Virus record (IMG/VR): IMGVR_UViG_3300030846_000100
Span: 10,352 to 74,351 of that record
From: a virus
Taxonomy: Duplodnaviria > Caudoviricetes
Strand: one strand, 5' to 3'
Length of the DNA stretch: 64,000 nt
A program made the translations under genes and the position numbers. Under the pieces are notes generated by a model. It had not been told where the DNA came from. It saw only the letters and a program-made list of their open reading frames with translations, and made no database searches. Below are positions 1 through 62,465 of the stretch, piece by piece (position 1 is the stretch's first letter; each line of letters opens with the position of its first letter).

Positions 1-1100
1 TTCGCAACCTGCTGACGGTTCCATGTTTCAACGAAACGATCGAGAACGTGCTCATCGATCGATCGAATCCCGTTCGAATGAGGAACGATCGCGGACGCAG
101 GAACCTTGTTCGTCTTGAAACCCTCACCTTCAACGAGACGCTTGACGTTCGCTGGGATCGTAGTTTCCTTCAATGAGAAAAGGATCGCGAATTTTTCGTT
201 GAATTCCATTGATTCAGCAAGAAGGTTCTTGACCTGATCAACCGTTTCTTCGATCACGGGAAACACGGGCATTTCAGAGTGCTCGTTCAACACCGAAAAA
301 TCGAATCGTTTATCGAATGATCTGGATTCATCGGTACGAATGTCGAAGATCGTCTCACGAGAGAGCGTGACGTCTTCTCGTTCCTTGATCCGATCTTGCA
401 CGGCCTTGAACAATTTCTTACGATCAATGTCGACACCAGCGGTCGTTCTTGATGCATCGCAGAAAGCATTCACTGCTCGTTCTTCCCAGTTGTAATCGAT
501 CATTCTGTGCTTGGAATAATCGTCAAGGATTGATCGTGCTTTTGTCTCATACCATTCATCGCTCAATTCGACCGCGTATTCTTTGCCTAAATCACCAAGT
601 GCTTCATCATCATGAATGTGAAGAAGATCATCGCCTACTTGGGTTACCTCGGCAAGCGTCGCTTTCTTTGTGTCAACTCGTTTCTTTGAGTAGATCAAAC
701 GTAGTTCATCATCAGAAGGAAATTTCCGTAGCATCTCTTTTACGACCTTTTCTGGAAGTCGACGAGCGGCAATCAAGCGGACCTTCGATGATGCATCGGT
801 CACGAACCTGCTCAAGAAACTTTCAGGCAGCAACGTTGCTGCAACAGCACGTACTTCAGGACGGGAATTCTTTGATAGCTTGACGAGCGTTGCAGTCTTG
901 AACCCCGAACATGAACGACCCGTCAATTCAAGGACCTTCAGACGAAGGTTGATCGATTCCGCAAGTTCGACTAGACCCACGTTCGTGTCCATGATAGGAC
1001 CCAGTGCGTTCTTGGTCTCAACCCTGAGACCCTCAGTGAGTTTTTCATCGTTCATTGCATCGCGAACGATGCTTCGCAATTGATCGAGCTTGATCTTCAT
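1..1100 (-). CDS. Large hypothetical virion-associated protein, partial (runs off the left edge; absent from the ORF track)
   Basis: Hand translation from ATG at 1100 (MKIKLDQLRSIVRDAMNDEKLTEG...) stays open to position 1. It has HEAT/LRV-like repeats (RPEVRAVAATLLP, SSKVRLIAARRLP) and many L/I-x-E motifs. TAATTA lies 6 nt upstream. Confidence 0.75.
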   Translation of the reverse strand, partial: MKIKLDQLRSIVRDAMNDEKLTEGLRVETKNALGPIMDTNVGLVELAESINLRLKVLELTGRSCSGFKTATLVKLSKNSRPEVRAVAATLLPESFLSRFVTDASSKVRLIAARRLPEKVVKEMLRKFPSDDELRLIYSKKRVDTKKATLAEVTQVGDDLLHIHDDEALGDLGKEYAVELSDEWYETKARSILDDYSKHRMIDYNWEERAVNAFCDASRTTAGVDIDRKKLFKAVQDRIKEREDVTLSRETIFDIRTDESRSFDKRFDFSVLNEHSEMPVFPVIEETVDQVKNLLAESMEFNEKFAILFSLKETTIPANVKRLVEGEGFKTNKVPASAIVPHSNGIRSIDEHVLDRFVETWNRQQVA

Positions 1101-1121
1101 GATCACTAATTATCATGTTCT

Positions 1122-1352
1122 CTATCGGCGTGTACGAATCTTGCATGATTCTTGCTTGTTGAAAGCCTGAATCGGTGTTCTTTTCCATCCGTACGTTCGA
1201 TTACCGATTGCGAACATGCAACAGATCGAAATTCCCATGCTCACGATTGCGATGTACATCCCCGCTGGATCGGGGAAATGACGACCCAGGGTCGCAGCTG
1301 AAACGTTGCAACAAACGCTGATAAATGCAAGAATCCAATCGAATTTCTTCAT
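1122..1352 (-). CDS. Small two-helix membrane protein
   Basis: Two hydrophobic segments; ATGA overlap with the upstream ORF. Confidence 0.5.
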   Translation of the reverse strand: MKKFDWILAFISVCCNVSAATLGRHFPDPAGMYIAIVSMGISICCMFAIGNRTYGWKRTPIQAFNKQESCKIRTRR

Positions 1353-1591
1353 AGACGTTTGAACCTATCGTTGAGAAGTTTCATTGAATGATTCCAGTGC
1401 AACAATTGATCGTTTAACAAAAAAGAGATCGAATAAACGGTACCTTTGTGTGAATACGGTCCTGTCGAACTTTCATGAAATGAAATCAATAATACAATTG
1501 AACCAAATGGAATCAATTTGTTTCTAAGTGAGTTGTCCCCCGAATCAGGATACACGGGGCCCAACACTCTGTAAAGTTTACCGGGAATCAC
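1349..1591 (-). CDS. Small hypothetical protein, PG-motif SH3-like family
   Basis: MIPGKLYRV start and beta-strand pattern; coupled to the next ORF. Confidence 0.55.
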   Translation of the reverse strand: MIPGKLYRVLGPVYPDSGDNSLRNKLIPFGSIVLLISFHESSTGPYSHKGTVYSISFLLNDQLLHWNHSMKLLNDRFKRL

Positions 1592-1637
1592 CTATGTTTA
1601 TATCATATGATTGGCGACATGAACACACGAACCCCGT

Positions 1638-2507
1638 CTACAAACTTAACATCGATTCAATCTTAGGATCACCATACTCAGCATGTGCCACATGACATAC
1701 CATGTTGTTTCGAACTTGATACGAAATTTTCCCATGCGTATGCCCACACAACACAGTGAATGAATTCGTAGGATACGCATCAGCCGCTCGTTCCAACAAT
1801 GTTGCCATCGTCGGAGATGTGAACCAAGGTGCTCCTTCGGGTTCACCCGTAGCCCCATTGTAAACGTGCGTCTCTTGCCATGGCGGCACGTGGGTGCAAA
1901 CGATGATGGATCGATGCGTCTTCACAGCTTCCTTGATCGCGGAATGCATATGAGCAATCTCTCCACGAAGATGTTCTTGAGAAACGTCGATGATGTCTTG
2001 CATTCTGACATCCTTCATCGTCTTTGCGTACTGGATACGTTCCCTGTAATCACGAATTCTCATCCAGTCGTTCATGATGAGCCTACTTTTCGCTCCGGCC
2101 CCAGCTGTACCGTCGTACCAACCATTGGCTCCAACGACCGCTGTGACATTCGAAACTTCAACGTACTTCGTGCTTGGTAGGTAACGCAGGAATGTTGAAG
2201 ACGCGGTCAACGCCATCATTTGCTTGTGTAGCGCATCGAACGACGTTTCCCACACGTCATGATTTCCCGTCACGAACAGAATGGGTATCTGAAGACCTTG
2301 TTCCAGCATCTTCAAGTGACGAGCAATGCTTGCACCATTCGAAATATCACCCGTAATGATTAAACCATCTGGTCCAGTTCGCTTGATTGATTCAATGAAT
2401 TCATGAATTCCATGATCACCCGAACGAATGTGATCCATGTGGATATCGCTTAAAAATGCGTAATTTGGCACGATTGAATCGTACAACGATTCAGAACGTA
2501 TGTTCAT
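1638..2507 (-). CDS. Calcineurin-like metallophosphoesterase
   Basis: Motifs SDIH, TGDIS, GNHD, THVPP and GHTH in canonical order. Confidence 0.9.
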   Translation of the reverse strand: MNIRSESLYDSIVPNYAFLSDIHMDHIRSGDHGIHEFIESIKRTGPDGLIITGDISNGASIARHLKMLEQGLQIPILFVTGNHDVWETSFDALHKQMMALTASSTFLRYLPSTKYVEVSNVTAVVGANGWYDGTAGAGAKSRLIMNDWMRIRDYRERIQYAKTMKDVRMQDIIDVSQEHLRGEIAHMHSAIKEAVKTHRSIIVCTHVPPWQETHVYNGATGEPEGAPWFTSPTMATLLERAADAYPTNSFTVLCGHTHGKISYQVRNNMVCHVAHAEYGDPKIESMLSL

Positions 2508-2511
2508 CCGT

Positions 2512-5826: not shown

Positions 5827-5835
5827 TTTCTTCCT

Positions 5836-7327: not shown

Positions 7328-9025
7328 TCATGCTTCGCATGCAGCACATTCATCCTTTGAGCGACTTGCCATGTCGCCCTTCAACGTCCCCGTTGCACGA
7401 AGGTAGTAAAGAGATTTCAATCCGCCTTCCCACGCTGCGATATGTACCTGATGAACGTACTTTGGATCAGCATTCGATGAAAAGAAAAGGTTCACAGATT
7501 GTCCTTGATCGACCCATCGTTGCCGCTGGCTTGCTTGTTTGATTATCGCGTATTGGTTGATCTCCATCGCGGTCAAAAATACTGATTTTTCTAAGGGGGA
7601 CAAAAAATCTAAATGCTGAACGCTTCCGTCGTTCATAATCACGGATGACCAAACATCCCTATCGTTCTTTTCCTTCGCAATCAGGAGCTTTTCAAATGAA
7701 ACATTCCTACGAATGAACGTTCCCTTTGCTGATTTCAACGAGTAAACGTTTGCTGAAATAGGCTCAATTCCTGCGCTCCATCCACCTGAAATCGTCGAGT
7801 TGGAAACGGTGGGGGCAATTGCAAGCAAGTGTGTATTTCGTCTTGAATGACCCTTACACCATTCGGGTTCACCAAGTTCATAAGCTAGTTTTTTCGTTTC
7901 GATCTCCGCGTTAGCTCGAATTGTTCGAAAGATTTGGGCATTCATTTGCATGGCTTCAAAGCTATCGAATGGAATCATCTCGTTCTGCAAAAGTGAATGC
8001 CATCCTAACACCCCAATTCCTATCGCGCGTCCCTTGATCGCAGATGCACGCGACGCTTCGAGACCGGGAAGGTTTTCTGACTTCTGAATGTATTCTTCCA
8101 ACACGGCATCCAGGAATCTGACGGCAGTATTGACGACGTCGGTGTCCTTCCATTCGTGCCAACGAACAATGTTGAGCGATGATAGACAACAAACGAACGA
8201 ATGATCAGGATCAGTGTGTAGCATCACCTCCGTACAAATGTTTGACGTTTTTACGGATAGGTTGTTGGCCGTGTAGCAATCGGGGTTGCTGTTGTTCACG
8301 TTGTCGGTAAAAAACATGTAGGGTTCGCCAGTTTCAACTCGAGTTCGTAGTATTTCTGACCACATTTCACGTTTCTTTTTATCGCCCCCGATGAGACTGT
8401 GCATCCACGCGTCTGAAATGCAAATACCTTGATTGATGTTCAAGCATCGTCTGTTAACATCGCCCGTTGGACGTCGAATGTTCATGAATTCATCTATGTC
8501 AAGATGTTCAATTGGAAGGTATATTGCGCTTGCTCCCCTACGAGTCGACCCTTGATTGACGGAGACGGTGGTTGTATCGTACACTTTCGCCCACGGAATC
8601 ACGCCTTCCGACGATCCGTTACCATTGATTGACGTTCCTCTCCCCCTGACGTCACCCAAGTAGATTCCTACACCCGCACCATTCTTGCTTAGCATTGCAA
8701 GTTCATGGTTCTTTTGAAAGATCGATGTTACGCTGTCGCCGACGTGGATTGAGTTGCATGAAATCGGCAGACCGCGATTTGTTCCTAAATTCGACGCAAT
8801 AGGACTTGAGACGCAAAGCCAATTTTTCCAAATTGCTTCAAAAAATTTTTTAAACCAAAAATCTTTTTCTTTATAGAAAGAACTACCAGCTTTCGCAATG
8901 CGCACGTACATCTCACGAGGTGTTTCTCCTGGCAAAAGATAACCGCCCTGAAGAGTTTTATATCCTTCTTCTAACATCCAAAGTGGTGCCTCATTACGTT
9001 TTTTTAATTCGTTTAAATCATCCAT
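7328..9025 (-). CDS. nrdA: Ribonucleotide reductase class I large subunit (no ATP-cone)
   Basis: SNICTE, CCLSS, IAPTVSNS, YYLR and C-terminal CAAC. Start re-placed at MDDLNEL (9025), overlapping the stop of the upstream endonuclease. Confidence 0.95.
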   Translation of the reverse strand: MDDLNELKKRNEAPLWMLEEGYKTLQGGYLLPGETPREMYVRIAKAGSSFYKEKDFWFKKFFEAIWKNWLCVSSPIASNLGTNRGLPISCNSIHVGDSVTSIFQKNHELAMLSKNGAGVGIYLGDVRGRGTSINGNGSSEGVIPWAKVYDTTTVSVNQGSTRRGASAIYLPIEHLDIDEFMNIRRPTGDVNRRCLNINQGICISDAWMHSLIGGDKKKREMWSEILRTRVETGEPYMFFTDNVNNSNPDCYTANNLSVKTSNICTEVMLHTDPDHSFVCCLSSLNIVRWHEWKDTDVVNTAVRFLDAVLEEYIQKSENLPGLEASRASAIKGRAIGIGVLGWHSLLQNEMIPFDSFEAMQMNAQIFRTIRANAEIETKKLAYELGEPEWCKGHSRRNTHLLAIAPTVSNSTISGGWSAGIEPISANVYSLKSAKGTFIRRNVSFEKLLIAKEKNDRDVWSSVIMNDGSVQHLDFLSPLEKSVFLTAMEINQYAIIKQASQRQRWVDQGQSVNLFFSSNADPKYVHQVHIAAWEGGLKSLYYLRATGTLKGDMASRSKDECAACEA

Positions 9026-9737
9026 TGTAAACCTCAAAATAATAATTGTGGTGTAAACTTTGTCGTCTAATTGCTCGTGAAACACCATGTCGATTCAAAA
9101 AAGTTAGGATTCGTAATAACTCATCCATGTTTTCAAAAATTTGTAAAATTTTTCTTTGTGAAGATTTTTGAACGATAGAAAATTTCTTCTTGTTCCAAGA
9201 TTCAATGCCCGAACGATTTCGAGAAATTAATGTTCTTGTTTCAAGACTGTGTTTTTTACCAAAAAAGTTGTTCAAAAAACCGTAGCGTTTGATTCGTGTT
9301 TTTGCATCAAGTTTATGACATTTCAATTTCATTCCTTGACGATGAGGTAATTGATAATGTTTACCCCGATTCCAGGGAATCTTTCCTAAACGAGAATCTG
9401 ACATTCTTTTTTTTGTTTCTTTACAAAATTTAAATTGGCCCCCGCCCGTCGTCAAATTCAATCCCTTTTCTGATTCAAATGTTTGATAAAAAGCGATATA
9501 GTATTGTTCTCTGTCGTTTAATGTAGTTAAATCAAAAATTTCATCCTGAATTATTGTGAACAAAGGAAACAAATTATCGCATTCAGATTTTTTTTTTCTT
9601 AAAAAATTGATAACTTTCGTTTTGCCACCGTTACGAATAGAGGATTCATAAGCACGAATACGTTGTTCAAGAGTTCGCTTAGTTTGACCAACATAGACAA
9701 TTTGTTCTTGAATTTTAATACCGTAGATTAACATCAA
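9018..9737 (-). mobile_element. Free-standing GIY-YIG homing endonuclease with NUMOD3-like repeats between nrdB and nrdA
   Basis: LIYGI...YVGQT..LEQR..Y, E..YI, G.NLTTGG and KHSLETR motifs; AT-rich relative to the flanks. Confidence 0.88.
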
Positions 9738-16843: not shown

Positions 16844-17534
16844 TTACTTCTTGAAGGGATTACGACGAACAAAAAATTCTTCAGCGGCCTTCATGATATG
16901 ACCTGAAACCATGTGAAAATGTTTGTTGTTTAACGCGTCGTTGTTCTTTTTCAAATCATTGATATCTGGGCCAGCATTCGCTTTGAAGCGGTAAGCCTGA
17001 TTAAGCTCGGGGAGATCATGAGATTTTACGCCACCCGTTAACGTGACGCTTCTCATCTTTTTAAGTGGAATATGTTCAACATCGTCTCGTTCGTAATACT
17101 TTGAAAACATCTTGGTTGCATCATTTGAAACAAGATCTCGATCAGGCATCAGCCCCATTTGCCCCGTTAGTTTCATAGCAACATCCCAAATGAACGGACC
17201 CCACCCCTTTATCGCCGCCATCCACAATGCTTCGTAATGTTCACCATTCAACTCAGCATACAAAACACCAATGATATGTTTTTGCATCATGTCTATGACT
17301 AATCATGTCTATGACTAGAGGTCGATTTTTGTCCACTAAGGAAGATGAACCGTTTGACATTTGAATCGCTTTTTCTATGTCGTCATCAACACCCTTCGTG
17401 TTGTACAAAATTACGTGTATTTTCTTAGGTGAAGAAAATGAATACAATGCAAGATTTTGTTGAACTGCGTTACCAGAATCAAAAGCCGCCTCTTGAATCA
17501 ATGAACGAATAAATTTTCGTAACACATTCATCAT
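16844..17534 (-). pseudogene. GNAT-like acetyltransferase paralog split by a 16-bp tandem duplication
   Basis: N-part MMNVLRKFIRSLIQEAA (start 17534) and C-part KGWGPFIWDVAM..LMPDR..VS..A are in frames offset by 1. Removing one 16-bp copy fuses them (370-16=354 nt). Confidence 0.75.
17286..17317. repeat. Perfect 16-bp tandem duplication ATCATGTCTATGACTA x2
   Basis: Read directly at 17286-17301 and 17302-17317. Confidence 0.95.
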
Positions 17535-20008: not shown

Positions 20009-20836
20009 TTAATCGGCGGTTGGCTCAATTGCTTGAAACGTTTTTTTCTCCTCGGGTGACATCATTCCAGCCGTCATCTTGTACCAAGGAGAGTTCGGTG
20101 CGTCTTTCTTGATCGCATTTACGATCTCATTTTCAATGTCGGGATTGATTGTAGATTCGCGTCCTTCGTCATTCAACGGGGCATTCAAAGCGTCTGAAAT
20201 TGTATCATGACCATCATCAACTTCATCGTAAACTTTGAAATTCGTTTTCTTCGTTGACTTCCCGTCGAAAGTCTTGTCAACGAATAGAATCGGTAACTCA
20301 ACAATGATCTTTCTTCCATTCGAACGATCCACGACAAGGTAAAGGACGGATGATTTACTATGATCTCGCCAGTGCGAATCTTTATGAGCCATTGAAATGC
20401 ACCATTTCGTACCTGACCCATACATAATGCACGCTTGCCGCGTATCGATCCTGTACACTGAAAAATTACCGATCGTGGTGATCAATGGTGCACCCCGTTG
20501 CTTCGTCTTTTGCTTGATTGAATTCTTTGTAGGTGAGATTTTCAATGCTTCTTTTCGAAGATCTTCAATATCTTTATACGAATTGATATCCTTACTTGAA
20601 AATGCATCTGGACGATCATGAAATGCTTTTGTCAACATGTACAATTGATGTTCGGAAGATTTGTTTCCGAACATCTGTTTCGCCATCCAACGCAGATACT
20701 TGTTCTTTCCGGAGGGGTCATTTTTTGAAAGTCTGTCGATGATATCGATTGAAGCCATTTCATCTTCGTACTTTTTTTTCACATCGTCAACGATGCCCTC
20801 AACAACCAACAAACGAATGCATTCACGTAGCAACAT
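20009..20836 (-). CDS. Tagged hypothetical protein with a GTKWCIS (PcfJ-like) domain
   Basis: Start re-placed at MLLRECIRLLVVEG; DPSGKNKYLRWM and YGSGTKWCIS motifs. Confidence 0.7.
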   Translation of the reverse strand: MLLRECIRLLVVEGIVDDVKKKYEDEMASIDIIDRLSKNDPSGKNKYLRWMAKQMFGNKSSEHQLYMLTKAFHDRPDAFSSKDINSYKDIEDLRKEALKISPTKNSIKQKTKQRGAPLITTIGNFSVYRIDTRQACIMYGSGTKWCISMAHKDSHWRDHSKSSVLYLVVDRSNGRKIIVELPILFVDKTFDGKSTKKTNFKVYDEVDDGHDTISDALNAPLNDEGRESTINPDIENEIVNAIKKDAPNSPWYKMTAGMMSPEEKKTFQAIEPTAD

Positions 20837-21548
20837 AGTAGAACTTTCTAATAACTTTTCTCGTTCCACCGTAATCGTACAACACGACACGCCCGTCACG
20901 AGTCTTACCAAAATGGTCGGAATCGAATTCACCTGGATGCAAATCTTCACGATCAACGAGATCACGAATTCCTTCGATGAATTCTGAAAATGCTTCAACA
21001 TCTTGAGGCTCGTAATCCATCAATTCGTCGATTCCCTCGTCGTACTTTGTGATTCGTTTGATCAAAATTTCGATGTCAACTAATGATCTAGAAATCATTC
21101 CCTTTTCAGGCGGTTCGCTAATTTTTAGTGCTCTCGCCATTTGTGTATCACCATCGAATTGATGAACTAAATCAGAAATGATCCATTTGAAAATAGGATC
21201 AGAATCGTACACCTTGACAACGACGTTCTTCAAACGAGGATTCTTGCTTACTTCGACCTCGGCTTGATTTTGAGCCATTCCAGCCCCCGCATCACCTGAT
21301 ATCGTGTGACTTTTCATCTTCGCAATTTTCAACACCTTGATCGAGCTCAACAAGTAAACGTTTCTTGAGCTTCCCCATCCAAGAACCTTTAAACGTGAAT
21401 CTGCGTAGTCATTACATTCTTGCAACGTCGAAAGATTCTTGAACTCGTTCATTTTGAACTTCAACGTCTTTTTATCACCCGAATCGCTTCTGATTCGTTC
21501 GCTTAGGATGCGACGAATCAACCAACGTACATCGTTCAACGTTGACAT
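20823..21548 (-). CDS. Minimal protein-kinase-like protein (tagged)
   Basis: LGWGSSRNVY glycine loop, VLKIA lysine, QNQAE, DLHP...HFG and VLYDYG. Confidence 0.78.
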   Translation of the reverse strand: MSTLNDVRWLIRRILSERIRSDSGDKKTLKFKMNEFKNLSTLQECNDYADSRLKVLGWGSSRNVYLLSSIKVLKIAKMKSHTISGDAGAGMAQNQAEVEVSKNPRLKNVVVKVYDSDPIFKWIISDLVHQFDGDTQMARALKISEPPEKGMISRSLVDIEILIKRITKYDEGIDELMDYEPQDVEAFSEFIEGIRDLVDREDLHPGEFDSDHFGKTRDGRVVLYDYGGTRKVIRKFYYVAT

Positions 21549-21799
21549 TACTTCTTCGGCTTTCTCTTCTTTTTGACGGACGGGATTCCCATCTGCCCGG
21601 AATAACCTGCAATGCTTCCGCCGCCGCAGGAAGAGAATTCATCAAGGGCATGATCATCTTTACGATCATCGATCTTGCGGTCAATCGTATCATCGTCCTC
21701 GGCCGCATCCTTCGGACTCATCAATTGCGTCGGAATCCGTGGATCCGTTTGACCTTCGACTAGAGCACGAACGAACCTACGAAGCAACGTTTTGTTCAT
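21548..21799 (-). CDS. Small tagged acidic/basic protein
   Basis: MNKTLLRRFVRALVEG start; TATTTA 4 nt upstream. Confidence 0.65.
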   Translation of the reverse strand: MNKTLLRRFVRALVEGQTDPRIPTQLMSPKDAAEDDDTIDRKIDDRKDDHALDEFSSCGGGSIAGYSGQMGIPSVKKKRKPKK

Positions 21800-23069: not shown

Positions 23070-23741
23070 ATGGACGTGATGAAAAACGACCACTTGCTTA
23101 AAAATTTCATCAGAAGTACTTTGATCGAAGCTGCGGTATCAATCGATCAAGCAAGTGGTCGTCTATTGGCGTTGAACGTTCTTGATCATGAGAAACAAAC
23201 GACGTACGTGTTGTACGACCCATCGTTGATCATTTCGTACGATGAAAATGATCTGTCATCGCTGCTTGATAAATCAATCGTAGCAACAATTTCCGTCAGA
23301 GATCCTAAAAAAGGTAACGCTTGGGGAGCTCGTGAGGTCATTGCATCCGCCGCACAAAAGGGATTTGGTCCGCTCATTTACGACATTGCAATGTCATGGG
23401 AGGGCGGACTCATACCTGATCGATTCAAGGTCAGCAGTCAAGCAAAGAACGTCTGGAAAATTTACTTTCAACGACCCGACATTGAAAAGAAAAAACTTGA
23501 CAATGTCGATGACCCAGATACACCACCTGATGTTGATGATGCGATCGTTCATGAAAAACAAGCAAATCCTCAACTAGATTACGCATACTTCATGCGTAAC
23601 GATCTTTCAACCAACAAGCTTGTTCAAAACCATTCTTTGTTTGAGTCTGAGCTTCTGAAAAGAGGAATGCAATTCATGAAAATTCAACGTATGTTCGATG
23701 ATGCATCCGCGAATTTCTTTGATAAAAAATTCTTTACTTAG
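23070..23741 (+). CDS. GNAT-like acetyltransferase paralog (tagged); lone plus-strand gene in the minus arm
   Basis: LLKNFIRSTLIEAA tag; AAQKGFGPLIYDIAM..LIPDR..VS..A..VW..Y. Confidence 0.7.
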   Translation: MDVMKNDHLLKNFIRSTLIEAAVSIDQASGRLLALNVLDHEKQTTYVLYDPSLIISYDENDLSSLLDKSIVATISVRDPKKGNAWGAREVIASAAQKGFGPLIYDIAMSWEGGLIPDRFKVSSQAKNVWKIYFQRPDIEKKKLDNVDDPDTPPDVDDAIVHEKQANPQLDYAYFMRNDLSTNKLVQNHSLFESELLKRGMQFMKIQRMFDDASANFFDKKFFT

Positions 23742-29316: not shown

Positions 29317-29970
29317 TCAAGATGGTTCCCCCGCATCATACCTCATCGAAAAATACGATCTTGAGGCTTCGTTGAACACGTAATCTGGATCCGACATTTC
29401 AACGTTAGAAATGACAACCTTGTCGTTATCGAACAGTTCTTTTATAGAAGGAAAGTACTCTAGCGAGTACGCGTAATTAAGAACATGTGATTTGCTATCG
29501 TAGTACACGAACGAGTCATCTTCGGGGGATGGGGTAACTGGATCGCTGATATCATCAAGTTCCCTTGCATCAACGTCCGGTCTTTCTTTGTACTTTTTCC
29601 ACACGTTCAAGGCTGATTTTGATACTTTGTCCCTGTCGGAAATCAATGCACCTTCGAACGCCATTGCAATGTCGTACATCAGGGGACCGTAACCTTTTTC
29701 AGCCGCGGAATTCGCAACCTCCTTCGCGCCCCAAGCTTTCCCTTCGGGATTTTTCACGGTTATTGTTCCAACGATCGAATCCTCAATCGGACCCACGAGA
29801 TCAGCATCATCATGGCGATAATCTTCAAAGAATTCTCCAATCTTCTTCATGAATTCTTTCGTATCGTACAACGTGTAGACAACGAAGGTATCATCGATCG
29901 ATCGATGCAGTGCTAAACCACGACGCTTCGCCTCGGGAACTGAGATCGCCGCCTCGAATAGTTTCTTCAT
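29317..29970 (-). CDS. GNAT-like acetyltransferase paralog (short tag)
   Basis: MKKLFEAAIS; AAEKGYGPLMYDIAM..LISDR..VS..A..VW..Y. Confidence 0.7.
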   Translation of the reverse strand: MKKLFEAAISVPEAKRRGLALHRSIDDTFVVYTLYDTKEFMKKIGEFFEDYRHDDADLVGPIEDSIVGTITVKNPEGKAWGAKEVANSAAEKGYGPLMYDIAMAFEGALISDRDKVSKSALNVWKKYKERPDVDARELDDISDPVTPSPEDDSFVYYDSKSHVLNYAYSLEYFPSIKELFDNDKVVISNVEMSDPDYVFNEASRSYFSMRYDAGEPS

Positions 29971-30602
29971 GAATTGTACTTATTATGAAAGTACTTCATG
30001 AATGCTAAGTTGAATACTGCGTTCAAATCGTTCACGATGACATCCTTGAAGGTATTTTGATCATTATCGAATAGTGCTTGAATTGATGGAAAATCGCCCA
30101 ACGCATAAGCATAGTTCAAGACGTCTTCGTCTTGACGAGGATCATCATCGTACGGTCCGGGACCGTAAGGTCCTTCTTCTGTACTTGAACCAAAGACGTA
30201 TGAATCATCGAATTTTTGTGGTGTTTTAGGGTTCATGACATCATCAAGAGGCATCATTGCAATGTCGTACATCAAAGGACCGTAACCCTTTTCAGCCGCG
30301 GATGCTTGAACCTCTTTTGCACCGTACGCGGAAGCGCTGGGTTTCTTGAATTCAATGATTCCAACAATGGATTTCCTCAACCTTTGAGCGACACCCTCAT
30401 CCGTATAACCTTCAGCTCTACCCGTTTTTTGCAGTGCTTTCTGCAATGGCTTCATCTCGTCTAAAAAAACACTTGGATCGTACAAAGTGTAACACTTTCG
30501 TGTACCCGATCCCGTAGAAATGTGCAACGCAAGATGACGTTTCTTTGCATCCGATGTCGAAGCTGCGACCTCTTGAATGAAATTACGTAAAATCTGTGTC
30601 AC
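29967..30602 (-). CDS. GNAT-like acetyltransferase paralog with an internal in-frame deletion (tagged)
   Basis: MTQILRNFIQEVAAS; AAEKGYGPLMYDIAM is followed directly by MPLDD, lacking about 30 aa present in the paralogs. Confidence 0.65.
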   Translation of the reverse strand: MTQILRNFIQEVAASTSDAKKRHLALHISTGSGTRKCYTLYDPSVFLDEMKPLQKALQKTGRAEGYTDEGVAQRLRKSIVGIIEFKKPSASAYGAKEVQASAAEKGYGPLMYDIAMMPLDDVMNPKTPQKFDDSYVFGSSTEEGPYGPGPYDDDPRQDEDVLNYAYALGDFPSIQALFDNDQNTFKDVIVNDLNAVFNLAFMKYFHNKYNS

Positions 30603-34783: not shown

Positions 34784-35404
34784 TTATAAGAACGATTCAC
34801 CGATCATTGTCTTGATGAATTTTCGTAGTTCATTTAAACCTCGACCTTTTATTTCTGAGCCACCCAAATCGACGAGAACTAGATCGTTTCCTCGTAACAT
34901 CAGATTCTCAACGTTGATGTCATTGTGACCCGAAATTCCTGCTTGATTCAATTGTTGAATTATTGGCAGAATTTCCGTTTTTATGATTCCCAGCGCTTCG
35001 ACTTCTGATTCGACATCTGGATCGACCTCATTGTCAAGAATTCTGAACATTAACAATGACCATTCACCGTTCGTATAATGATCCAATTCCTCAAGAGCGT
35101 TTTCAATCCTTTGAGCTCGTAATCCAGTCAATGGTGATAAACGTTCCTTGACAATTGCATCGTAATCATCCAAACGAAAAACATCTTGAACGTTGACAAT
35201 ATTTTTGAAATTTTTGTTCAAAAGCAGTTTGCATGCCCTTGCCTCCGAAGCATCCGTCGTGATTTTTAAAATTCGTGGTACGTCATGAAATGTACAAAAG
35301 TAAGCAAACCCCGTTGAACCTTCACCTGCTATTCCCGTAACATTACACCCTCGATCGTTAAGAAAATCTTCGAATTCTGATACAGTGTCATCTATTTCGC
35401 TCAT
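34784..35404 (-). CDS. Minimal protein-kinase-like protein (tag-like motif at the C-terminus)
   Basis: AGEGSTGFAY, ILKIT, HNDINVENLM and VLVDLG; ends LNELRKFIKTMIGESFL. Confidence 0.8.
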   Translation of the reverse strand: MSEIDDTVSEFEDFLNDRGCNVTGIAGEGSTGFAYFCTFHDVPRILKITTDASEARACKLLLNKNFKNIVNVQDVFRLDDYDAIVKERLSPLTGLRAQRIENALEELDHYTNGEWSLLMFRILDNEVDPDVESEVEALGIIKTEILPIIQQLNQAGISGHNDINVENLMLRGNDLVLVDLGGSEIKGRGLNELRKFIKTMIGESFL

Positions 35405-35617: not shown

Positions 35618-36097
35618 TCATAGCTTGTCAATCGTGAATCTAGCGCCAAAATGAATGTTGTGAGGTAATTTATCAAGCGAGAACCATTCGTGATCATCGT
35701 TCTCCCAATTCAATTGTGGAACGAACGAATGTCTCGTTTCTTTCGCCACGTTATACACGTAAGTTCTGTAAGCAAAGTTCTTGTCTCTGAACGTTGTTAT
35801 GGTGATCAATTGAGTTGTGGCGGGGAGTGAACCCATCTCTTCTATTGTTTCACGCTTCGCACTTTTCAACCAGCGCTCGTTCGATGGATCTTGTGATGCA
35901 ACATTGTTGTTCTTCATTCCTTCTTCGTCGGTTGCCCCGCCGGCAATTCCCCAAGTTCCGGGTTGCATGACTTCTTGACTACGTTTCAGTAGAAGAACTT
36001 CATTTGTTTCCTTGCAAACGTACATGATTCCGGAAGCTTTGCTTCCCCAATATACCGCTTCAACGATCAAACTGATGTACGAGCGTAACAACGACAT
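35618..36097 (-). CDS. Nudix hydrolase (tagged)
   Basis: Nudix box variant WGIAGG...SAKRETIEEMG; start MSLLRSYISLIVEA. Confidence 0.85.
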   Translation of the reverse strand: MSLLRSYISLIVEAVYWGSKASGIMYVCKETNEVLLLKRSQEVMQPGTWGIAGGATDEEGMKNNNVASQDPSNERWLKSAKRETIEEMGSLPATTQLITITTFRDKNFAYRTYVYNVAKETRHSFVPQLNWENDDHEWFSLDKLPHNIHFGARFTIDKL

Positions 36098-39804: not shown

Positions 39805-40446
39805 TTAAGCACCGTAATCCAACAAAACGATTCGCCCATCTGGGGCTTTACCCCACTGACGAGATTGAGCAACGTCAACGAATGTCTGTGATCGCCAATT
39901 GAAAACGAATTCAACGAACCTTTGAAGGACGTCATCATGCGTACCCGATGAAAAATGATCGATCCACATTTTGGTCGCAGGTGAATTGGGAGATTCAGTT
40001 CTCGCGCCGTCCAAAGCACTTTTTTGACGTTGAGAAACCATCGTCGTCATGAAGTTGTACATTGAACGTCGTTTGATCCCCAAGAAATCCTCGACCTCAT
40101 CGAGCGACTCGCACGGATTCACGAGCTCCGTAACAATCCATTCGTAATTTGGTTCATGTTCAAAAACTTTCGTGATGAACTCCGATTTCGCAGAATCAAG
40201 TTCACATTCATTTTGAATGCGACCGAATTGGTGTGCTGCAATCTTCAACGCGCGCTTTGATGACAACGCGAACACCTTTCTTGAACTACCTTCACCGATG
40301 AATTGTAAACGAGAAGATGCGTATTCAAGTCGTTGTTGTTCGGTGGTGAATGATTTGAATTCGCTCCAGTCGAACGGTAATCTTTTGTTCTTGTTTCGAA
40401 CCTCGTTCAATACGAGTTTGACGAATTCACGTAACATTTTACTCAC
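39805..40446 (-). CDS. Minimal protein-kinase-like protein (tagged)
   Basis: MLREFVKLVLNE; IGEGSSRKVF, ALKIA, QNECE and VLLDYG. Confidence 0.78.
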   Translation of the reverse strand: MSKMLREFVKLVLNEVRNKNKRLPFDWSEFKSFTTEQQRLEYASSRLQFIGEGSSRKVFALSSKRALKIAAHQFGRIQNECELDSAKSEFITKVFEHEPNYEWIVTELVNPCESLDEVEDFLGIKRRSMYNFMTTMVSQRQKSALDGARTESPNSPATKMWIDHFSSGTHDDVLQRFVEFVFNWRSQTFVDVAQSRQWGKAPDGRIVLLDYGA

Positions 40447-41188
40447 GTGAATCCAAATCTGCCTTCATTGCGTAGTAAAAGTCATCACCTTTGCCTTTAC
40501 CCGTGTTTAGACGATCAATCGCAGCTTGACCCTTTTCGCCAACGTACACCTTACGCGTCTCTTCGTTGTACCCGTAATCGAGCAACACGATTCTCTGATC
40601 AGTCGTGACTCCCCAATGTTCAAGAGGTACTAAATCTTGATCCAACAAGCCGATCTCACGAAAATGAATGATGGCATTCACGAACGATTGAAACTTTTCA
40701 ACATTCTCGGGAAGGGCGTAAAATTCTATCTTTGCCCATGATCTTTTGCCAACATTATCAACGTATTGAATGACATTGTTCATGTTCATTCGAGATACGA
40801 GGCCCGTCAATCGACAAAATTCTTCCTTGTTCTTCACCGGACGAACGAGCTCGCTGATCAACCAGATGTTTCGTGGTTCGGATTCATAGACACGAGCAAC
40901 GTACTGCTTGAACTCTTGTGACATCGAATCGTACAACGTGCGTTCCGCCTTGTTCTGAGCACGACCAATGTCATCACGTTTGAACGAACCACCCACAACC
41001 TTGAGAACCTTTCGAGACGACAAAAGGTACACAGTGCGTGATGAACCTTTACCCATTTCTTGGAGGCCCGTCATTCGGCAGTAAGATTGAACTTCTGCAG
41101 CGTCTTCGCAATCACGAAGTGTTTTGATTCGAAAGAGTTCGTTTCGAAGACGCTCGTTCAACGATAGACGAACGAATTCACGGATCAT
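40439..41188 (-). CDS. Minimal protein-kinase-like protein (tagged)
   Basis: MIREFVRLSLNE; MGKGSSRTVY, VLKVV, QNKAE, DL...HWG and VLLDYG. Confidence 0.78.
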   Translation of the reverse strand: MIREFVRLSLNERLRNELFRIKTLRDCEDAAEVQSYCRMTGLQEMGKGSSRTVYLLSSRKVLKVVGGSFKRDDIGRAQNKAERTLYDSMSQEFKQYVARVYESEPRNIWLISELVRPVKNKEEFCRLTGLVSRMNMNNVIQYVDNVGKRSWAKIEFYALPENVEKFQSFVNAIIHFREIGLLDQDLVPLEHWGVTTDQRIVLLDYGYNEETRKVYVGEKGQAAIDRLNTGKGKGDDFYYAMKADLDSRE

Positions 41189-42654: not shown

Positions 42655-43518
42655 TTATGTGATTCGAGAAATTAACGCATCAATGTTCAAGTATTCATCG
42701 CAAATGACACGAATTAGCCTCATATTTCGTGCTTTGAACCATTCATTTTGTCGTTGGTCGATCAACATTTTTCCATGAATGGACTTGTCTTGTTTTGATT
42801 TGAACTCAGCAACTTCGTTCAAATCTCGCAACGTTCCATCACTTTTATAACCATGCCAGTAACTGTCGTATTGAACGTATGTGTCAATTGATTTGACATG
42901 AAAGTCTATGAACCAGTGATCGTTGATCTGGACTTGACGTTCAACATCGTTTTCACCAAAATGATCGATCAAGATTGAGTGAATGATTTCTTCGGGTTTT
43001 GATGTTTTGAACGAATTGTTTAATTTCATTGTCTCAAATTTTTTCGTGTTTCTTTTTACCCAATCAACTTTTTTGAATGAATCGCGACATCTTTGTTCAA
43101 TTTCTGGATCATTGTATCGTTTTTTGCATTGTTTCGTTCCTAAAAACGAAATTTTTCCGTAACGTTTTAAACAAGTTTTTTGACGATTTTCAATTGAAAT
43201 TCGTGATTGACCTGTAGTTTCTACTCCGTATTTTTGTAAACATGTTATACGAGATTTTTTTAAACACTCACTTGAACTTAATGGCGAAGTCGTTCCGTAC
43301 TTTGCTAAACAAGTTGCTTCTTTCTTTGAGCGTAAAATTCCACCTTTAGCCGAAAGTCTAAAACACTCTCTTTTACAGAAATGTAATTTTCCTTGGCGTT
43401 TTAAACCGCTTTCGAATTTAGTTGAACATTCATCACAACTAAAAACGTTAATAGATTTGTACCATTGACGACCTAATCTATCAATTTTTGAAGGAATTTT
43501 TTTCGTTTCAACGAACAT
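42655..43518 (-). mobile_element. Putative homing endonuclease: zinc finger, KYG repeats and Vsr/DUF559-like domain
   Basis: CDEC...HFC..EC, repeated TCL.KYG, SKPEE and IDFHV..IDTYVQYDSYWHG; AT-rich. Confidence 0.78.
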
Positions 43519-43791
43519 TACGTAAATCTTCGTAACCTTGAAGGTTGTTGATTTCTTTGCATTCCCATTAACTCACGAGTTTGAGGATCATTTGTATGAA
43601 CAGCACGATTCGGAGGGGGATCGTTTGAATCTTTGCCTTTAATTTCTCGTATGATTCTATCAACAAACCAACGACGAAATGGAACGGGAAGATTATACGC
43701 TTCGGCGTAAGTAAATCCCCCGTAATATAGCAATACGAAAATTGGTTCTAAAAAGAGTAAAGCCTTATCTTCAGGTCTCAGGCCAAAAAAA
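43518..43791 (-). CDS. Downstream tail/baseplate chaperone segment (gp51/GT-like), probably reached by frameshift
   Basis: Frame is open from the T7 run (FGLRPEDK...LLYYGGFTY.EAYNLP...RRWF) with no ATG/GTG start. Confidence 0.65.
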
Positions 43792-44619
43792 CGTTGACCC
43801 GAGAGGGATGATCACTTCCTCGACGTGCCCACATGCTTCGCACTTCGTATCCTGCTTCATGTCAATGCCAGGTTCATTGTCCTTCATGTACTTACGAAGC
43901 GCCCGGCTGTCAAGAGCGGGCATCATGCTGACGAACTTGATGATACGAGATCGATCGTCATCACCATCGATCGATACGATCGCTTGAGCGAGGTTCGACG
44001 TGACGAGCGTATCGAGCTGTGACTTGAAGTTCTTCTTCATTCGTTCAGCCGTGACGGTGATCTCGTTCTTTGTCCTTCCGGTGAGGAACCTGAATCGAAC
44101 CAGACGTTTTGAAACGGGGAGCTTCATCTCGAACAGATTCTCTCCCGTCACGACCGGTTCAAGCGTCAGGCCCTTGATTCCCAGATTGGCGAGGTTGAAT
44201 TGACGATCGGTCTGTTCACCGCATTCTTCACACTTGATTTGCGTGTCGTAATCAGTTCCGTAACCAACGGCACGAACCGCGATCATCAGTGCGTTCATGT
44301 CGCCCATCAGCAATGAATCAACATCGACTGATTTGTTACACAGACATGACTTGATCAATTCGGAGATCACGGTGCCGTTCTTTAGCAACGCAGATGACGT
44401 GAGGATGTCCTCCTCACGTGCGGTCATCGCAGTGATATCGACGGTCTCAACGAGGTGGAAAGGATGATCGGGCGGATACACCTTTCCTTTTGACGGAAGT
44501 GAGACCGCGGATACAGGGACAACGTCTACCTGCAACTGAACCTTCGGCAAGGTTGTTGTTTGCTGCGGTGTCTCCGAAAATACCTTGTTTGAGGACGATC
44601 TATCATCTGGCATGCTCAT
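43771..44619 (-). CDS. Baseplate hub assembly chaperone (T4 gp26-like)
   Basis: LPSKGKVY, MTAREEDIL, GD.NAL...R..GYG, CxxC...CxxC, ending FFWP. Confidence 0.8.
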   Translation of the reverse strand: MSMPDDRSSSNKVFSETPQQTTTLPKVQLQVDVVPVSAVSLPSKGKVYPPDHPFHLVETVDITAMTAREEDILTSSALLKNGTVISELIKSCLCNKSVDVDSLLMGDMNALMIAVRAVGYGTDYDTQIKCEECGEQTDRQFNLANLGIKGLTLEPVVTGENLFEMKLPVSKRLVRFRFLTGRTKNEITVTAERMKKNFKSQLDTLVTSNLAQAIVSIDGDDDRSRIIKFVSMMPALDSRALRKYMKDNEPGIDMKQDTKCEACGHVEEVIIPLGSTFFWPET

Positions 44620-57390: not shown

Positions 57391-59710
57391 ATGTCTAAGA
57401 AAGATATTGACGACCCGTCTGTGAGAATTCCACGCAAATTTGCTGGACTTCATTCTCACGACGGGTCGTCCTAGTGCTGCCTTTGATGGGCTTGGTTCAC
57501 CCTCAGACCACATTGCATGGTGTAAGGAGAATGGTTTAGATGCTTGGGCCGCAACTAATCATGGGCAAATGAATTCGTATGCGAACGCCGCATTGTACGT
57601 TGAAAAGCTCAACAAGGGTGGCGATAATTTCAAATTTATTCCTGGCTGCGAGCTCTACATCCATCCCGATCTCGAACAATGGAAGAAGGATTACGAGCTC
57701 GACAAGACAACGAAAGCTGATGAAAAGGAGAAAAAGAAACAAGCGAAGAAGGAGCTTGAAAAGATCAAGACATTGATCGATGTTGAGCAAGATCCGAATG
57801 GAGAAGTCATTGAAATGACGAACTCTCTGACGATTGAGAACGAGGATGAGAGCAAAGGTTCAACGAAGTTCTTTAAACCAGTTAATAGACGTCACCATCT
57901 CGTTGTCCTTCCAAAGAACTCAAACGGTCTTCTCGATCTTTTCAAGCTCGTATCGGTTGGATACTTGGATGGCTTTTACAGATTCCCTCGAATCGATTTC
58001 AAGGCTTTGAAGGAGGCTGGAAAGAAAGGAAATCTGATAGCAAGTTCAGCCTGCTTGGCGGGTCCGATGTCATGGGAGACACTGAGAGTATGTCAAGAAG
58101 TCGAATTTGACAAACTTAATGCGACGATTTTGAACGATGCAACGCTGCTTGATCGTGCTGTGAAAAACGTCGGTCTGATTCATGAACGTCTCATCGATTG
58201 TTTGGGGGAAGAGAATGCATTCTTGGAGATCCAGTTCAATCGATTGGGCGCACAGGATCTAGTGAATCGTGCTATCATCGAGTACGCAAGACGAAGCAAT
58301 TTTACGAAGCAATTGATCGTAACATGTGACAGTCACTATCCTCGTCCCGAAAGTTGGCTTATTCGCGAAGTGTACAAAAAATTGGGATGGATGAAGTATC
58401 AAGACTTCACGCCCGATATGCTTCCAAAGTCTCGCGAAGAGCTGAAATGTGAATTGTACCCGAAGAACGCGACCCAAGTTTGGGAGGAGTACCAAAATTC
58501 TAAAGTTCGTGAAGGTAACGAGTTCTACGATGATACCGAGATCTTTGATGCAATCGAGAGGACGCATGATATCGCTCATAACGTGATCGGTGATGTGAAG
58601 CTCGATAAGACCCCCAGGTATCCCACGAAGATCGTCCCCGTGGATACGACGGCATTCAAGATGTTGACAAAGTTGACGATTGAAGGCCTTCGACAAAAAA
58701 AGCTCGACAAGAACAAAGAATATGTAGATCGTCTCAAATTCGAACTCGGTGTTATCAAGCAAATGGATAATGCGGCATACTTCGTCACGTTGTCGAAGAT
58801 GCTGAGCCTTGCTCGAGATGTGGTACTTCTCGGTGTTGCGAGAGGTTCATGCGGTGGCAGTTTGGTTTGTTACCTTTGTTCTATCACGGATCTCGATCCC
58901 ATCAAGTATAAGTGTCGTTTTGATCGCTTTATGAATCCTCACCGCGTGGGCCTTCCGGATGCTGATATCGATGTTTCAGATCGTGATAAAGTTCTAGATG
59001 TTTTTCGAAAGGAATTTGGATTCAACAACGTTTTGCCAATTTCGAACGTGAACGTTTTCAAGATCAAATCACTTTTGAAAGATCTTTCCAAATTCAATGG
59101 TGTTCCATTCGATGAAGCGAATGAAGCGACGCGAACTGTTGAACAGGAGGTTAGAAAGGCGACGCATGAAGCTGGAGCCGACAAGAATCTCTTTGTTTTG
59201 ACGTACGATGATGCGATGAAACACAGTCCTTCTTTTTTGGCATTCATTGAAAAATATCCCGCGGTTGGTGAACACATGAAAAGCCTCTTCAAGGAACAAA
59301 AATCGCTTGGAAGGCACGCGGGTGGTGTGATCATTTTAGATGATGCGGCTTCACAGATTCCAATCATAACGTCGAAAGGAGAACCTCAAATGCCTTTCGG
59401 GGAGGGGGTGGCACAGAAAACCTGCGAACCATTAGGTTACATTAAGTACGACATTCTAGGTTTGGAAACTATGAGATTGATCGAACGAACGATATCTCTT
59501 ATCATCTCACAAAAACTTGGAAAATTGATCCAACTCGAGTTCGATGATGACAATAAAATTGAACTTTACGAAAATGAAGAGGTAAAATTAACAACGGGTG
59601 AATTCATTCGAGCAAAAGATCTCAATGAGAATCACGATGTCATGATACCTTTCGTAAAAAATGGAACGTCCTTACCTTCAACAGAGAACAAAGTACTGGT
59701 TTCACACTAA
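57391..59710 (+). CDS. dnaE: DNA polymerase III alpha (DnaE), N-terminal half only, with a frameshift near the 5' end
   Basis: PHP motifs (LHSHDGS, TNHG, GCELY, CDSHY), RGSCGGSL, DLDPIKY, PDADID, GRHAGG and KYDILGL. The 57391 frame stops at TAG 57472 and continues in the +1 frame. The C-terminal half is absent. Confidence 0.88.
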
Positions 59711-61484
59711 ATGTGGAAACTTTCGTCTCACTCAAGAAGGTATAGATTTCTTTAGTGAGTTGCCTAAACTCACTGGTCCACATCCCATACCATCTAGTTG
59801 TCCGATTTGTGGAGCAATTCCTCGACAAGGGAAGAATCCTCTTTTAGCTTTGTCGATACATTTTGCCCGCTTGCATTCTACGGATAAAAGTCAACTAACA
59901 ATTGCTTCACATTTCAACGGGATCAAACCTGTTTGCAAAGTATGTTCGGCGGACGTGATTCATCGTGGTGTGACACATGGATTTAAGATCTTGTGTGAAC
60001 AATGCGATGATCTTCGTGTCGTTGCAAACACAGCCAAGAAACGAAAATTGAAACACGAAGTTGCGTGGAACAAAGGTCTCACTCAAGAAACTTCTGATTC
60101 CGTCAAGCGAGGAACGATCAATTGTTCAAAAACGTTGACAAAATTCGGAGCGTGGAGCAAAGACCTTTCTCTTAAAAAGAATCCTGACAATGAAAGTCTT
60201 CAAAAACTTTCTAAGAATACATCAATCGGATTGAAAAAATTCTATGAAACGAACGAATCATGGTGCACGGGTCTCACGAAGGAAAATAGTGAGATCATTC
60301 GTAATCGTGGTCAAAAAATTCATGAAGCATTCGTACGAATCCCCTTAAAAGAACGATTCAGTGAAAATGGTCGTCGTAATCTGCAAAGTAGCATGCGCCG
60401 TGTTCAATTGCTTCAAGCGGAAAAACAAAAAATTCCAATTGAGACGATCATTGAACGAATCAATTCAATCAATCATAATTGGACACCTTGTTTTTCGATT
60501 GACACAAAAACATTCAAACCAATCTGGTCAATTTGGGCCGGAGAACTTCGAGAATATCAATGTGTCCATTGCAAACAAGTCTACAAAAACGGCTCGAATG
60601 TTTTCATTGGCTGGGATGGTGAAGGAAAGAAATGTCCGTGTCAAAAAACCGGAAATTCAAGGGCTGAATTCGAAATCGAAGATTTTTTGAAATTACATGA
60701 ATTGAACGTAAGTAGAAATAATCGATCGGTGATCTCTCCTTGGGAACTAGATTTCATCATTCCCGAAAAGAAGTTAGCCGTCGAATTCAATGGATTGTAT
60801 TTTCACAGCGAGATAAAGAAAGCGAATACGATCTGGTATCATGAAAATAAACGCAATATGTGCGTCAAAAACGATTATTCGTTGTTTCACATTTATGAAG
60901 ATGAATGGAATAATAAACGCGACATTGTCAAATCAATGATCCTTCAAAAACTTGGTCATGTTCAACGAAAACTTCACGCTCGTAAATGTGAAATTTTTGA
61001 ATATCAAGAACCTGGTGAACTTCGATCATGGTTTGATACGAATCATATTGATGGTTACGTGAATTCGGAATACGCTTTCGTGTTGAAGGAAAATGATGAA
61101 ATTGTATTCGCTGTTCTACTTCGTAAACCATTTCATCAAAGAACTTACGGTGACAAAACGATTGAAATTGCACGATTTGCATCAATACTGAATTCGAACG
61201 TTCGAGGCGCGTTCATGAAATTAATGAATCAAATCAAGCTTTGGTGTTTCAAGAATGGTTTTGGTAGAATTCTTTCGTATCATGATAACCGATTCGGTGG
61301 CTCGGGTGATTGTTATAAACGTGCAGGGATGACATTGCTTCGTACAAGTGGTATTTCATGGTGGTGGACAAATTATCGTGAACGTGTGAATCGTTTTGAA
61401 TTCAAAAATAAACAATCTGCCGCGAATGAAGGTTACTATAAAATTGGGGGATGTTCGAACGAAGTGTACGTGCTTGATTTGTGA
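59661..61484 (+). mobile_element. Large putative homing endonuclease (zinc fingers, WNKGL repeats, PD-(D/E)XK domain, C-terminal GNAT/Mom-like domain)
   Basis: CPICG..H...H, WNKGLT, S.AE.EI, ELDFIIPEKKLAVEFNGLYFH, ARKC, NHIDG and EIARF. Confidence 0.75.
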
Positions 61485-61554
61485 AATCAAAGAAACGATG
61501 CTAGAAAAGTATCGACGAGATGTACGTTATCGACAATTTTAATACGGTAATGGT

Positions 61555-61860
61555 ATGACACATTATGTTTATACGTCAAAAAAACCACATGGATACATTG
61601 AGGGTGTAGGTGGTGTCGTAAATGGAAACGTGTTTTATCAAACGGTCGATGAGGTTTTAGATAATCTTGATCGAGGTGAACGATATTACGTTTCAACACG
61701 TATCGGAGAACCGTTGGTTGAAATTCACCCAATGCAAAACGGGCCATTAACGGAAGTTCATCAAAAACAATTGGGAAGGATTCATCCCGAACGTTCAATT
61801 CGAAGTGACGCTGATATAACATCACATAACAATCTTGACAATCTTCCAGAATGTCCTTGA
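61555..61860 (+). CDS. DUF3892-like protein
   Basis: C-terminal RSDAD.T..NNLDNLPEC motif. Confidence 0.7.
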   Translation: MTHYVYTSKKPHGYIEGVGGVVNGNVFYQTVDEVLDNLDRGERYYVSTRIGEPLVEIHPMQNGPLTEVHQKQLGRIHPERSIRSDADITSHNNLDNLPECP

Positions 61861-62324
61861 TCATGACAGACATCTCTGAATACGAGTCAACGTACGCTTC
61901 GTCATTTCCTCAACTTCCTACGATGCGAAAGCTTTGGCATTCGGATTACTGGGACGGCCCAATTAACGGGTTGTGCATAGTGAACGATGAAAAGTGTTGG
62001 TACGAGATGATTGAAGAGAATTCTGATAGTGGTCATGACGTTCCCGATGAACCATTACCTTGGTACCGTCGATACCTCGTCTGGAAATTGACTGATGAAC
62101 AACTTAATTACGTTGAAGTTCGTCATGAGAAGTTTCGCAGAATGGTAGGAACTCACAGTGATTACGTTTATGACGAGAATGATGCCTGTTCAAGAGGAAA
62201 GTACCAGCCCAACGGTGAATTAACGAGCCAATACTACGAGGAGGCAAGGATCGAAGCTGATCTTGAAAAGCCATTGAACATCTCGCCTGCAGTTGAACGT
62301 ATCATCGGATGGCATGAAACGTGA
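61851..62324 (+). CDS. Hypothetical protein
   Basis: HSDYWDGP..GLC..N.EKCWY; overlap-coupled. Confidence 0.65.
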   Translation: MSLIMTDISEYESTYASSFPQLPTMRKLWHSDYWDGPINGLCIVNDEKCWYEMIEENSDSGHDVPDEPLPWYRRYLVWKLTDEQLNYVEVRHEKFRRMVGTHSDYVYDENDACSRGKYQPNGELTSQYYEEARIEADLEKPLNISPAVERIIGWHET

Positions 62325-62336
62325 TAATTACGAATC

Positions 62337-62465
62337 ATGAAGATCACCCTAAAACAATTGAAAGATATCATAAAGGAAACAATGGAACGAAACAATTACA
62401 AGCCAAATGATCTTTACTGGTTCTCGTTTCCCGATACACCCGAAGAATTGTCGATTTGTCGATAA
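62337..62465 (+). CDS. 42-aa ORF consisting largely of the N-terminal tag (not in the ORF track)
   Basis: MKITLKQLKDIIKETMERN...; TAATTA at 62325, 6 nt upstream. Confidence 0.55.
   Translation: MKITLKQLKDIIKETMERNNYKPNDLYWFSFPDTPEELSICR

Follow-up and report, generated by a model that had tools for sequence, protein, structure and literature searches.

Tagged genes in a jumbo phage contig

The window analyzed here is a 64,000-base stretch (bases 10352-74351) of a 74,351-base IMG/VR viral contig, and coordinates refer to the window unless the contig is named. Many of the open reading frames (ORFs) in its structural region begin with a similar short amphipathic peptide, referred to below as the tag, and this report concerns the distribution and probable function of that peptide. 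CheckV estimated the completeness of the contig at ~21%, which makes it part of a phage genome of roughly 350 kb. The source is an uncultured T4-type jumbo phage, and no near match to the contig was found among cultured phages.

The type-1 tag is 12-15 residues long, amphipathic, has the consensus L-L-R-x-F-I-R-x-L-L-x-E, and is found at the start of nine window ORFs and of one ORF upstream of the window (contig 8408(+)). The core copies lie at 17534(-), 20836(-), 21548(-), 21799(-), 23070(+), 30602(-, shortened), 36097(-), 40437(-) and 41188(-), with the first Met 0-8 residues before the tag; the start at 40437 is an ATG, and a GTG at 40446 is the less likely alternative. At 29970(-) only a stump is present, M-K-K-L-F-E followed by A-A. 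A related second class (type 2, M-K-I-x-L-x-Q-L-K-x-I-I) occurs at 1100(-), 62337(+) and contig ~6470(-). Every tag in the window ends in a hydrophobic-x-Glu sequence, with L, I or V at position P3 and E at P1. All 13 tag peptides listed in the initial annotation were recovered in place. Its description of one shared tag holds for the core type-1 set, but the copies at 1100 and 62337 belong to the second class and that at 29970 is the stump.

The tagged genes are inserts between conserved genes of the tail and baseplate backbone. In G004 (204 kb) and G002 (320 kb), two relatives that are syntenic with the backbone of the window, the same junctions are empty; the exception is the 83 amino acid (aa) gene, which is kept in place in G004. 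The tagged genes share the strand and the tight spacing of the structural genes, an arrangement compatible with co-expression with virion genes, and no obvious common motif was seen in the regions upstream of them. Pfam confirmed 10 genes for replication and nucleotide metabolism (metallophosphoesterase, PNKP, Dam methylase, thymidylate kinase, the two ribonucleotide reductase subunits, DnaB-type helicase, 5'-3' exonuclease, RecA-type recombinase and DnaE-type polymerase), and, as had been claimed, none of them is tagged. Since the type-2 tagged 45-aa ORF at 62337, itself a doubtful gene, lies among small plus-strand genes beside DnaE, tags also occur outside the structural block.

Table 1. 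Tagged genes and structural landmarks of the window. aa, amino acids; AF2, AlphaFold2; pLDDT, predicted local distance difference test; score, N-terminal weight-matrix score.
Feature	Position	Strand	Evidence
Kinase-like, 249 aa, type-1 tag at residues 1-12	40439..41188	-	AF2 pLDDT 85; Foldseek; phrog_4301
Kinase-like paralog, tag from ATG at 40437	39805..40437	-	Score 15.9
Kinase-like paralog, tag at residues 7-17	20823..21548	-	Weak AceK_kinase Pfam match
Kinase-like paralog, no N-terminal tag, C-terminal tag-like peptide	34784..35404	-	Paralog alignment
GNAT-like, type-1 tag ending E then A-A	23070..23741	+	Score 15.2
GNAT-like paralog, six-residue stump tag (L-F-E then A-A)	29317..29970	-	AF2 pLDDT 88; VIA Z 5-7.2 (a range common for VIA)
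GNAT-like paralog, shortened tag, internal deletion of ~35 aa after G-Y-G-P-L-M-Y-D motif	29967..30602	-	Paralog comparison
Fourth GNAT-like paralog, frameshift-split	16844..17534	-	Tag and N-terminal half 17253-17534; C-terminal half 16844-17290
Nudix hydrolase, type-1 tag	35618..36097	-	Pfam NUDIX PF00293, residues 23-150; score 18.4
'KWCIS' protein, type-1 tag	20009..20836	-	Score 21.3; L032 and L034 homologues tagged too
83-aa tagged protein, backbone gene at same site in G004	21548..21799	-	Homologues in six loci
Large protein running off the window, type-2 tag	3..1100	-	G004 homologue at 144487 with same kind of tag
45-aa ORF, type-2 tag; doubtful gene	62337..62474	+	Tag only
T4 gp26-type baseplate hub	43771..44619	-	Pfam T4_baseplate 1.3e-18; phrog_150
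Tape-measure-like protein, 1223 aa	36109..39780	-	Atlas features score 0.95; listed named clusters all tape-measure families

Enrichment of the tag at N-termini

A strict pattern for the type-1 core had seven matches in the six frames of the whole contig, and each of the seven began at the start of a real ORF, no more than one residue downstream of an in-frame start codon; when the 117 called proteins were shuffled 1000 times, the mean number of matches was 0.06 and the maximum 2. HMMER profiles of the tag were powerless, with one match above 8 bits, and a two-block weight matrix and position statistics were used instead. To avoid circularity the training set of the matrix was restricted to N-termini of kinase-like proteins of other phages, and the KWCIS, Nudix and GNAT-like proteins nevertheless scored highly at their N-termini (Table 1), with none of 13,337 internal positions reaching 12. 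A six-frame scan with the matrix that ignored position performed no better than one of reversed sequences; only the N-terminal enrichment is significant. Type-2 tags are enriched 15- to 38-fold at N-termini in G004 and the source contig.

The hydrophobic moment of the tags is 0.4-0.9, compared with a background of 0.3. The DNA encoding the tags has 57% nucleotide identity between copies, and 48 of 84 synonymous third positions are shared. A repeated DNA element or recent gene conversion was rejected on the basis of this identity and the lack of conservation at synonymous sites, which also indicates that selection acts on the peptide.

Families of tagged proteins

The initial annotation described about 13 tagged ORFs with unrelated bodies, which overstated the variety of the cargo: the bodies fall into about six families, namely kinase-like, GNAT-like, Nudix, KWCIS, the 83-aa protein and a 173-aa protein. 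The count of four kinases and four GNATs was upheld to the extent that each family has four paralogs; one of the kinase-like proteins (34784-35404) has no N-terminal tag, the other three being tagged, and one of the GNAT-like genes is split by a frameshift. That the tag is portable across folds is borne out, with the kinase-like fold confirmed, the GNAT-like fold moderately supported and the Nudix domain identified by Pfam.

Sequence-only searches with the kinase-like proteins gave weak results. A Foldseek search with an AF2 model yielded 104 protein-kinase matches at E<=1e-3, with PRPK/Bud32, PknA/B/I and two effector kinases, OspG and Lpg2603, at the top. Of the kinase signature, the Gly-rich loop (G46-x-G48-S-S-R), the Lys (K63), the helix-C Glu (E82), the catalytic Asp (D185) and the D-x-G motif (D204-Y-G) vary little or not at all. 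A minimal protein-kinase fold is thereby confirmed at the level of the predicted structure. The paralog at 34784 ends in L-R-K-F-I-K-T-M-I-G-E plus three residues, and this C-terminal copy of the tag, noted previously, is real. Two in-frame stops follow it, a TAA and then a TAG, and read-through into the adjacent 1027-aa gene was rejected for this reason. The copy may be a recombination scar at the tag, or a C-terminal propeptide, which has been reported for T4 Alt.

Foldseek E values for the GNAT-like model were about 1e-2, and the VIA Z values (Table 1) fall in a range common for VIA; nearly all rows were GNATs, and Pfam gave no match for these proteins. We consider the GNAT-like fold moderately supported by this modeling. 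The two halves of the split gene align to residues 9-85 and 89-139 of the paralog at 23070, and a single frameshift just after V-I-D-M, near 17253-17290, separates them; it could reflect a pseudogene, an assembly error or programmed slippage.

The Nudix protein matched PF00293 with 38.8 bits (cut-off 21.1, E 1.1e-9) and phrog_1198 at 3e-16, and since the Pfam match begins at residue 23 the tag lies outside the domain. The KWCIS protein could be assigned to no family by Pfam, PHROG or Atlas. Homologues of the 83-aa protein are tagged in all six loci, and in each the tag is followed by R-V-P-x-Q-L.

Tags in homologues

For the kinase-like, GNAT-like, KWCIS and 83-aa proteins, nearly all homologues from metagenomes are tagged. 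The kinase-like family comprises 4,434 clusters at 50% identity and has no described function; at least 93 of 134 single-domain representatives carry a tag that ends in hydrophobic-x-Glu (median length 15), and P3 is L, I or V in 82 of these 93. Natural homologues that lack the tag start at, or immediately after, the terminal Glu, as seen for the GNAT-like proteins P0014 and P0015 and for ~8-10 of the 134 kinase representatives. A kinase-like homologue from Asteriusvirus (Rak2-like jumbo coliphages), with ~25% identity and encoded among small genes near the genome end, also has no tag. These tag-less forms identify the tag as a separable module with a sharp boundary. One kinase, L012, carries a type-2 tag in place of type 1, and therefore the two classes appear to be interchangeable.

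Several kinase representatives have an L-R-I-A-A-R-V-A tag without the terminal Glu. Two to four kinase-like modules occur in tandem in metagenomic proteins of 450-920 aa (P0023-P0036). A tblastn search of cultured phages gave no match for the GNAT-like protein or for the tagged protein beside the G004 protease.

Linkage to head genes in related phages

The head module of G002 and G004 encodes a large terminase, a portal, a gp21-type protease (PF03420, phrog_207) and a gp23-type capsid protein, whose predicted propeptides end in V-L-K-E or L-L-R-E before Ser. In both, a few kb separate the capsid gene from the tagged kinase genes downstream of it, and the small proteins that adjoin the protease carry type-2 tags. 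In G004 the protease is encoded at 80539-81174 and a tagged kinase at 91835-92608. Across nine large contigs that hold a kinase-like gene, seven have a PF03420 protease, in four cases 6-14 kb from the tagged kinase. G002, G004, G006 and G007 have the tagged kinase near the protease and capsid genes and away from tail sites of the kind occupied in the window. In G001, a complete 393-kb phage, the kinase-like gene (L015) bears a variant tag, L-L-R-I-A-A-R-I-A-A-V-P-T-E.

In G003 (G003:C1:136856-138568 (-), loci L057, L058, L088, L089) a single open frame of 579 aa holds the gp21-type protease domain in two parts separated by ~1 kb, which suggests an inserted element such as an intein.

The 74-kb source contig has no head genes. 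A search for the head module of the source phage with an exact 40-mer gave no match among viral and metagenome contigs; a contig of 174,695 bases is, however, known to encode an identical GNAT-like protein.

Other genes of the window

The gp26-type hub is followed by three conserved proteins of 982-1223 aa. The largest of these, the 1223-aa protein, gave no match in Pfam and PHROG searches; its language-model features make it look like a tape measure, which we regard as a lead. A conserved 96-aa gene at 30599-30889 (-), which has no family match, comes immediately after the gene of the conserved 1027-aa protein in each of the three phages, and by its size and position it could encode a spike-tip protein.

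Homing-endonuclease-like genes with GIY-YIG-like N-termini are present at 30889-31680, 9018-9737 and 42655-43518 (-; phrog_3339), within the structural and ribonucleotide reductase regions. A gp32-type single-stranded DNA-binding protein is also encoded. The DnaE-type polymerase region (57440-61484 (+)) has an ORF of 756 aa, compared with homologues of 897 aa in G004 and 1261 aa in G002, and since the ORF that follows it matches a separate G004 gene, the polymerase appears to be split or truncated in the window.

Comparison with known capsid targeting and processing systems

The T4 internal proteins and Alt have N-terminal propeptides of 10-19 residues that target them to the scaffolding core and are cut off after Glu by gp21, and the first ten residues of the propeptide are sufficient to package foreign proteins [PMC3012670, PMC9026906, PMC8442874, PMC5694885]. 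The T4 capsid targeting sequence (CTS) has about 10 residues, one adjacent cut and a hydrophobic-x-Glu end [PMC8442874], and its targeting and processing residues are separable [PMC9026906]. In T-even phages diverse proteins are found behind a conserved tag [PMC3012670, PMC9026906], and Alt, a packaged modifying enzyme processed by gp21, provides a precedent for enzymatic cargo [PMC9026906].

Like the CTS of IPI, IPII, IPIII and Alt, the window tag is a short N-terminal peptide that ends in aliphatic-x-Glu and precedes otherwise unrelated proteins, and the two have an aromatic-aliphatic pair in common (Q-E-F-I in T4, R-E-F-I/V in the window tag). They differ in that the window tag has 12-15 residues, as opposed to 10, and a consensus of its own, that its cargo consists of enzymes of 80-275 aa in paralog families whereas the T4 internal proteins are small and basic, and that the tagged genes of the window are inserted in the tail module. 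In T4 itself, exchange of the Glu for Asp prevents processing but leaves targeting intact. The gp21-cut N-termini of T4 gp22, gp24, gp68 and gp21 show the same hydrophobic-x-Glu pattern, and the propeptides of gp22 and gp24 resemble the window tags, ending in L-I-A-E and L-L-R-E. However, these proteins and gp23 are structural components of the core or shell, whereas the tagged proteins of the window are accessory enzymes.

In the giant phages phiKZ, 201phi2-1 and SPN3US many head proteins are likewise cut after Glu by a gp21-related protease, and gp53 and gp54 are paralogs whose first 15 residues are identical, in a manner reminiscent of the window tags; the cleavage motif there is A/S/G-x-E, however, the propeptides are mostly longer than 100 residues, and these phages belong to another lineage [PMC5694885]. 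The Asteriusvirus kinase-like homologues belong to the same minimal family as the window kinases but have no tag, so that the tag is an add-on. In limited searches of the literature, no account of a kinase carried inside a phage virion was found.

A probable capsid-targeting and protease-site signal

The best explanation of these data, and in our judgment a probable one, is that the tag is a capsid-targeting signal combined with a protease site, as proposed in the initial annotation from the (L/I)-x-E ends. What is observed directly is the tag itself, where it occurs, that it is portable and where it ends, and, in relatives, its linkage to the protease and the head module; from this we infer docking, cleavage, packaging and injection as follows. 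The tag would be related to the T4 CTS but longer by about one helical turn, and its N-terminal amphipathic helix would dock the protein on the scaffolding core during prohead assembly. The tag would then be cut off at hydrophobic-x-Glu by a prohead protease of the gp21 type (S77), and the mature enzymes would remain beside the DNA in the head and pass into the cell on infection. The tag would have been added to kinase-like, GNAT-like, Nudix and other genes inserted between conserved tail and baseplate genes. The ends of the tags, the gp21-type proteases of the relatives and the tagged genes in their head modules sustain the proposal, but the lack of head genes on the source contig does not.

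Several further observations weigh on the other side. The tagged genes of the window lie among tail genes and not head genes, and the T4 late promoter T-A-T-A-A-A-T-A is absent from the window. With ~21% of the genome in hand and no head gene among it, the phage's own protease is out of view, and G001 has no matches to gp21, gp23 or S78. P1' is often K or R in the kinases, compared with small residues at T4 N-termini, and the tag is near-universal in the kinase family. AF2 draws one helix across the proposed cut site (helix 2-18, pLDDT about 80). Lastly, in the tandem multi-kinase proteins several modules are preceded by a tag-like peptide that ends in hydrophobic-x-Glu, an arrangement that, judged by sequence, fits either protease-cut polyproteins or an integral helix.

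Some of these same points would be expected if the tag were an integral structural or oligomerization helix, for example one that docks enzymes into a single cytoplasmic complex and has spread by domain shuffling, with no role in the capsid. Its near-universality in the kinase family, its repetition ahead of tandem modules, the continuous predicted helix and the amphipathic character with its raised hydrophobic moment would all follow. Against this, the tag is always found at the very N-terminus, on folds that can do without it, and tag-less homologues begin exactly after the Glu; the terminal hydrophobic-x-Glu is the most conserved feature, and the same tags occur on proteins beside the prohead protease. 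We therefore consider this explanation unlikely, although it fares best among the alternatives.

The location of the tagged genes between the gp26-type hub, the tape-measure-like protein and other large conserved structural genes could instead mean that the tag loads proteins into the lumen of the tail or baseplate, or onto the tape measure. This appears improbable, as the tagged kinase is near the protease and capsid genes in four relatives, the syntenic tail block of G002 and G004 is without the inserts, and the motif at the end of the tag is that of a site cut by a head protease. More improbable still is that the tag is a leader recognized by a modifying enzyme or other dedicated partner, similar to that of a ribosomally synthesized and post-translationally modified peptide, since no candidate maturase is linked in the window, G002 or G004 and no enzyme other than the prohead protease was found to be recurrently linked. 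A generic amphipathic N-terminus without common function, for which the shortness and low information of the motif and the failure of the HMMER profile might speak, is scarcely credible given that seven matches were observed where 0.06 were expected, all at ORF starts, that an independently trained matrix finds unrelated N-termini, and that homologues on many contigs have kept the tag.

Implications for jumbo phages

T4 already establishes the principle of a capsid targeting signal, and the new element here is the enzymatic cargo. It is plausible that the cargo would act as a modification toolkit injected before transcription begins. It is tempting to extend the capsid-targeting reading to a large clade of uncultured T4-type jumbo phages, an extension that we put forward tentatively and with somewhat more doubt than conviction. 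In these phages a portable, two-class zip-code of 12-15 residues would load a changeable set of protein-modifying enzymes (minimal kinases, GNAT-like acyltransferases and Nudix hydrolases) into the capsid, the prohead protease would free them from the tag and, in tandem polyproteins, from each other, and host proteins or nucleotides would be modified before phage expression.

If this is true, whole families of enzymes, beyond the small anti-restriction proteins, would be delivered at injection. A defined and transferable tag would also serve, as the T4 sequence already does, as a practical tool for loading foreign proteins into phages of this kind. The tag would then be a label, readable in the sequence, that predicts the capsid-borne proteins of uncultured jumbo phages from metagenomes alone.

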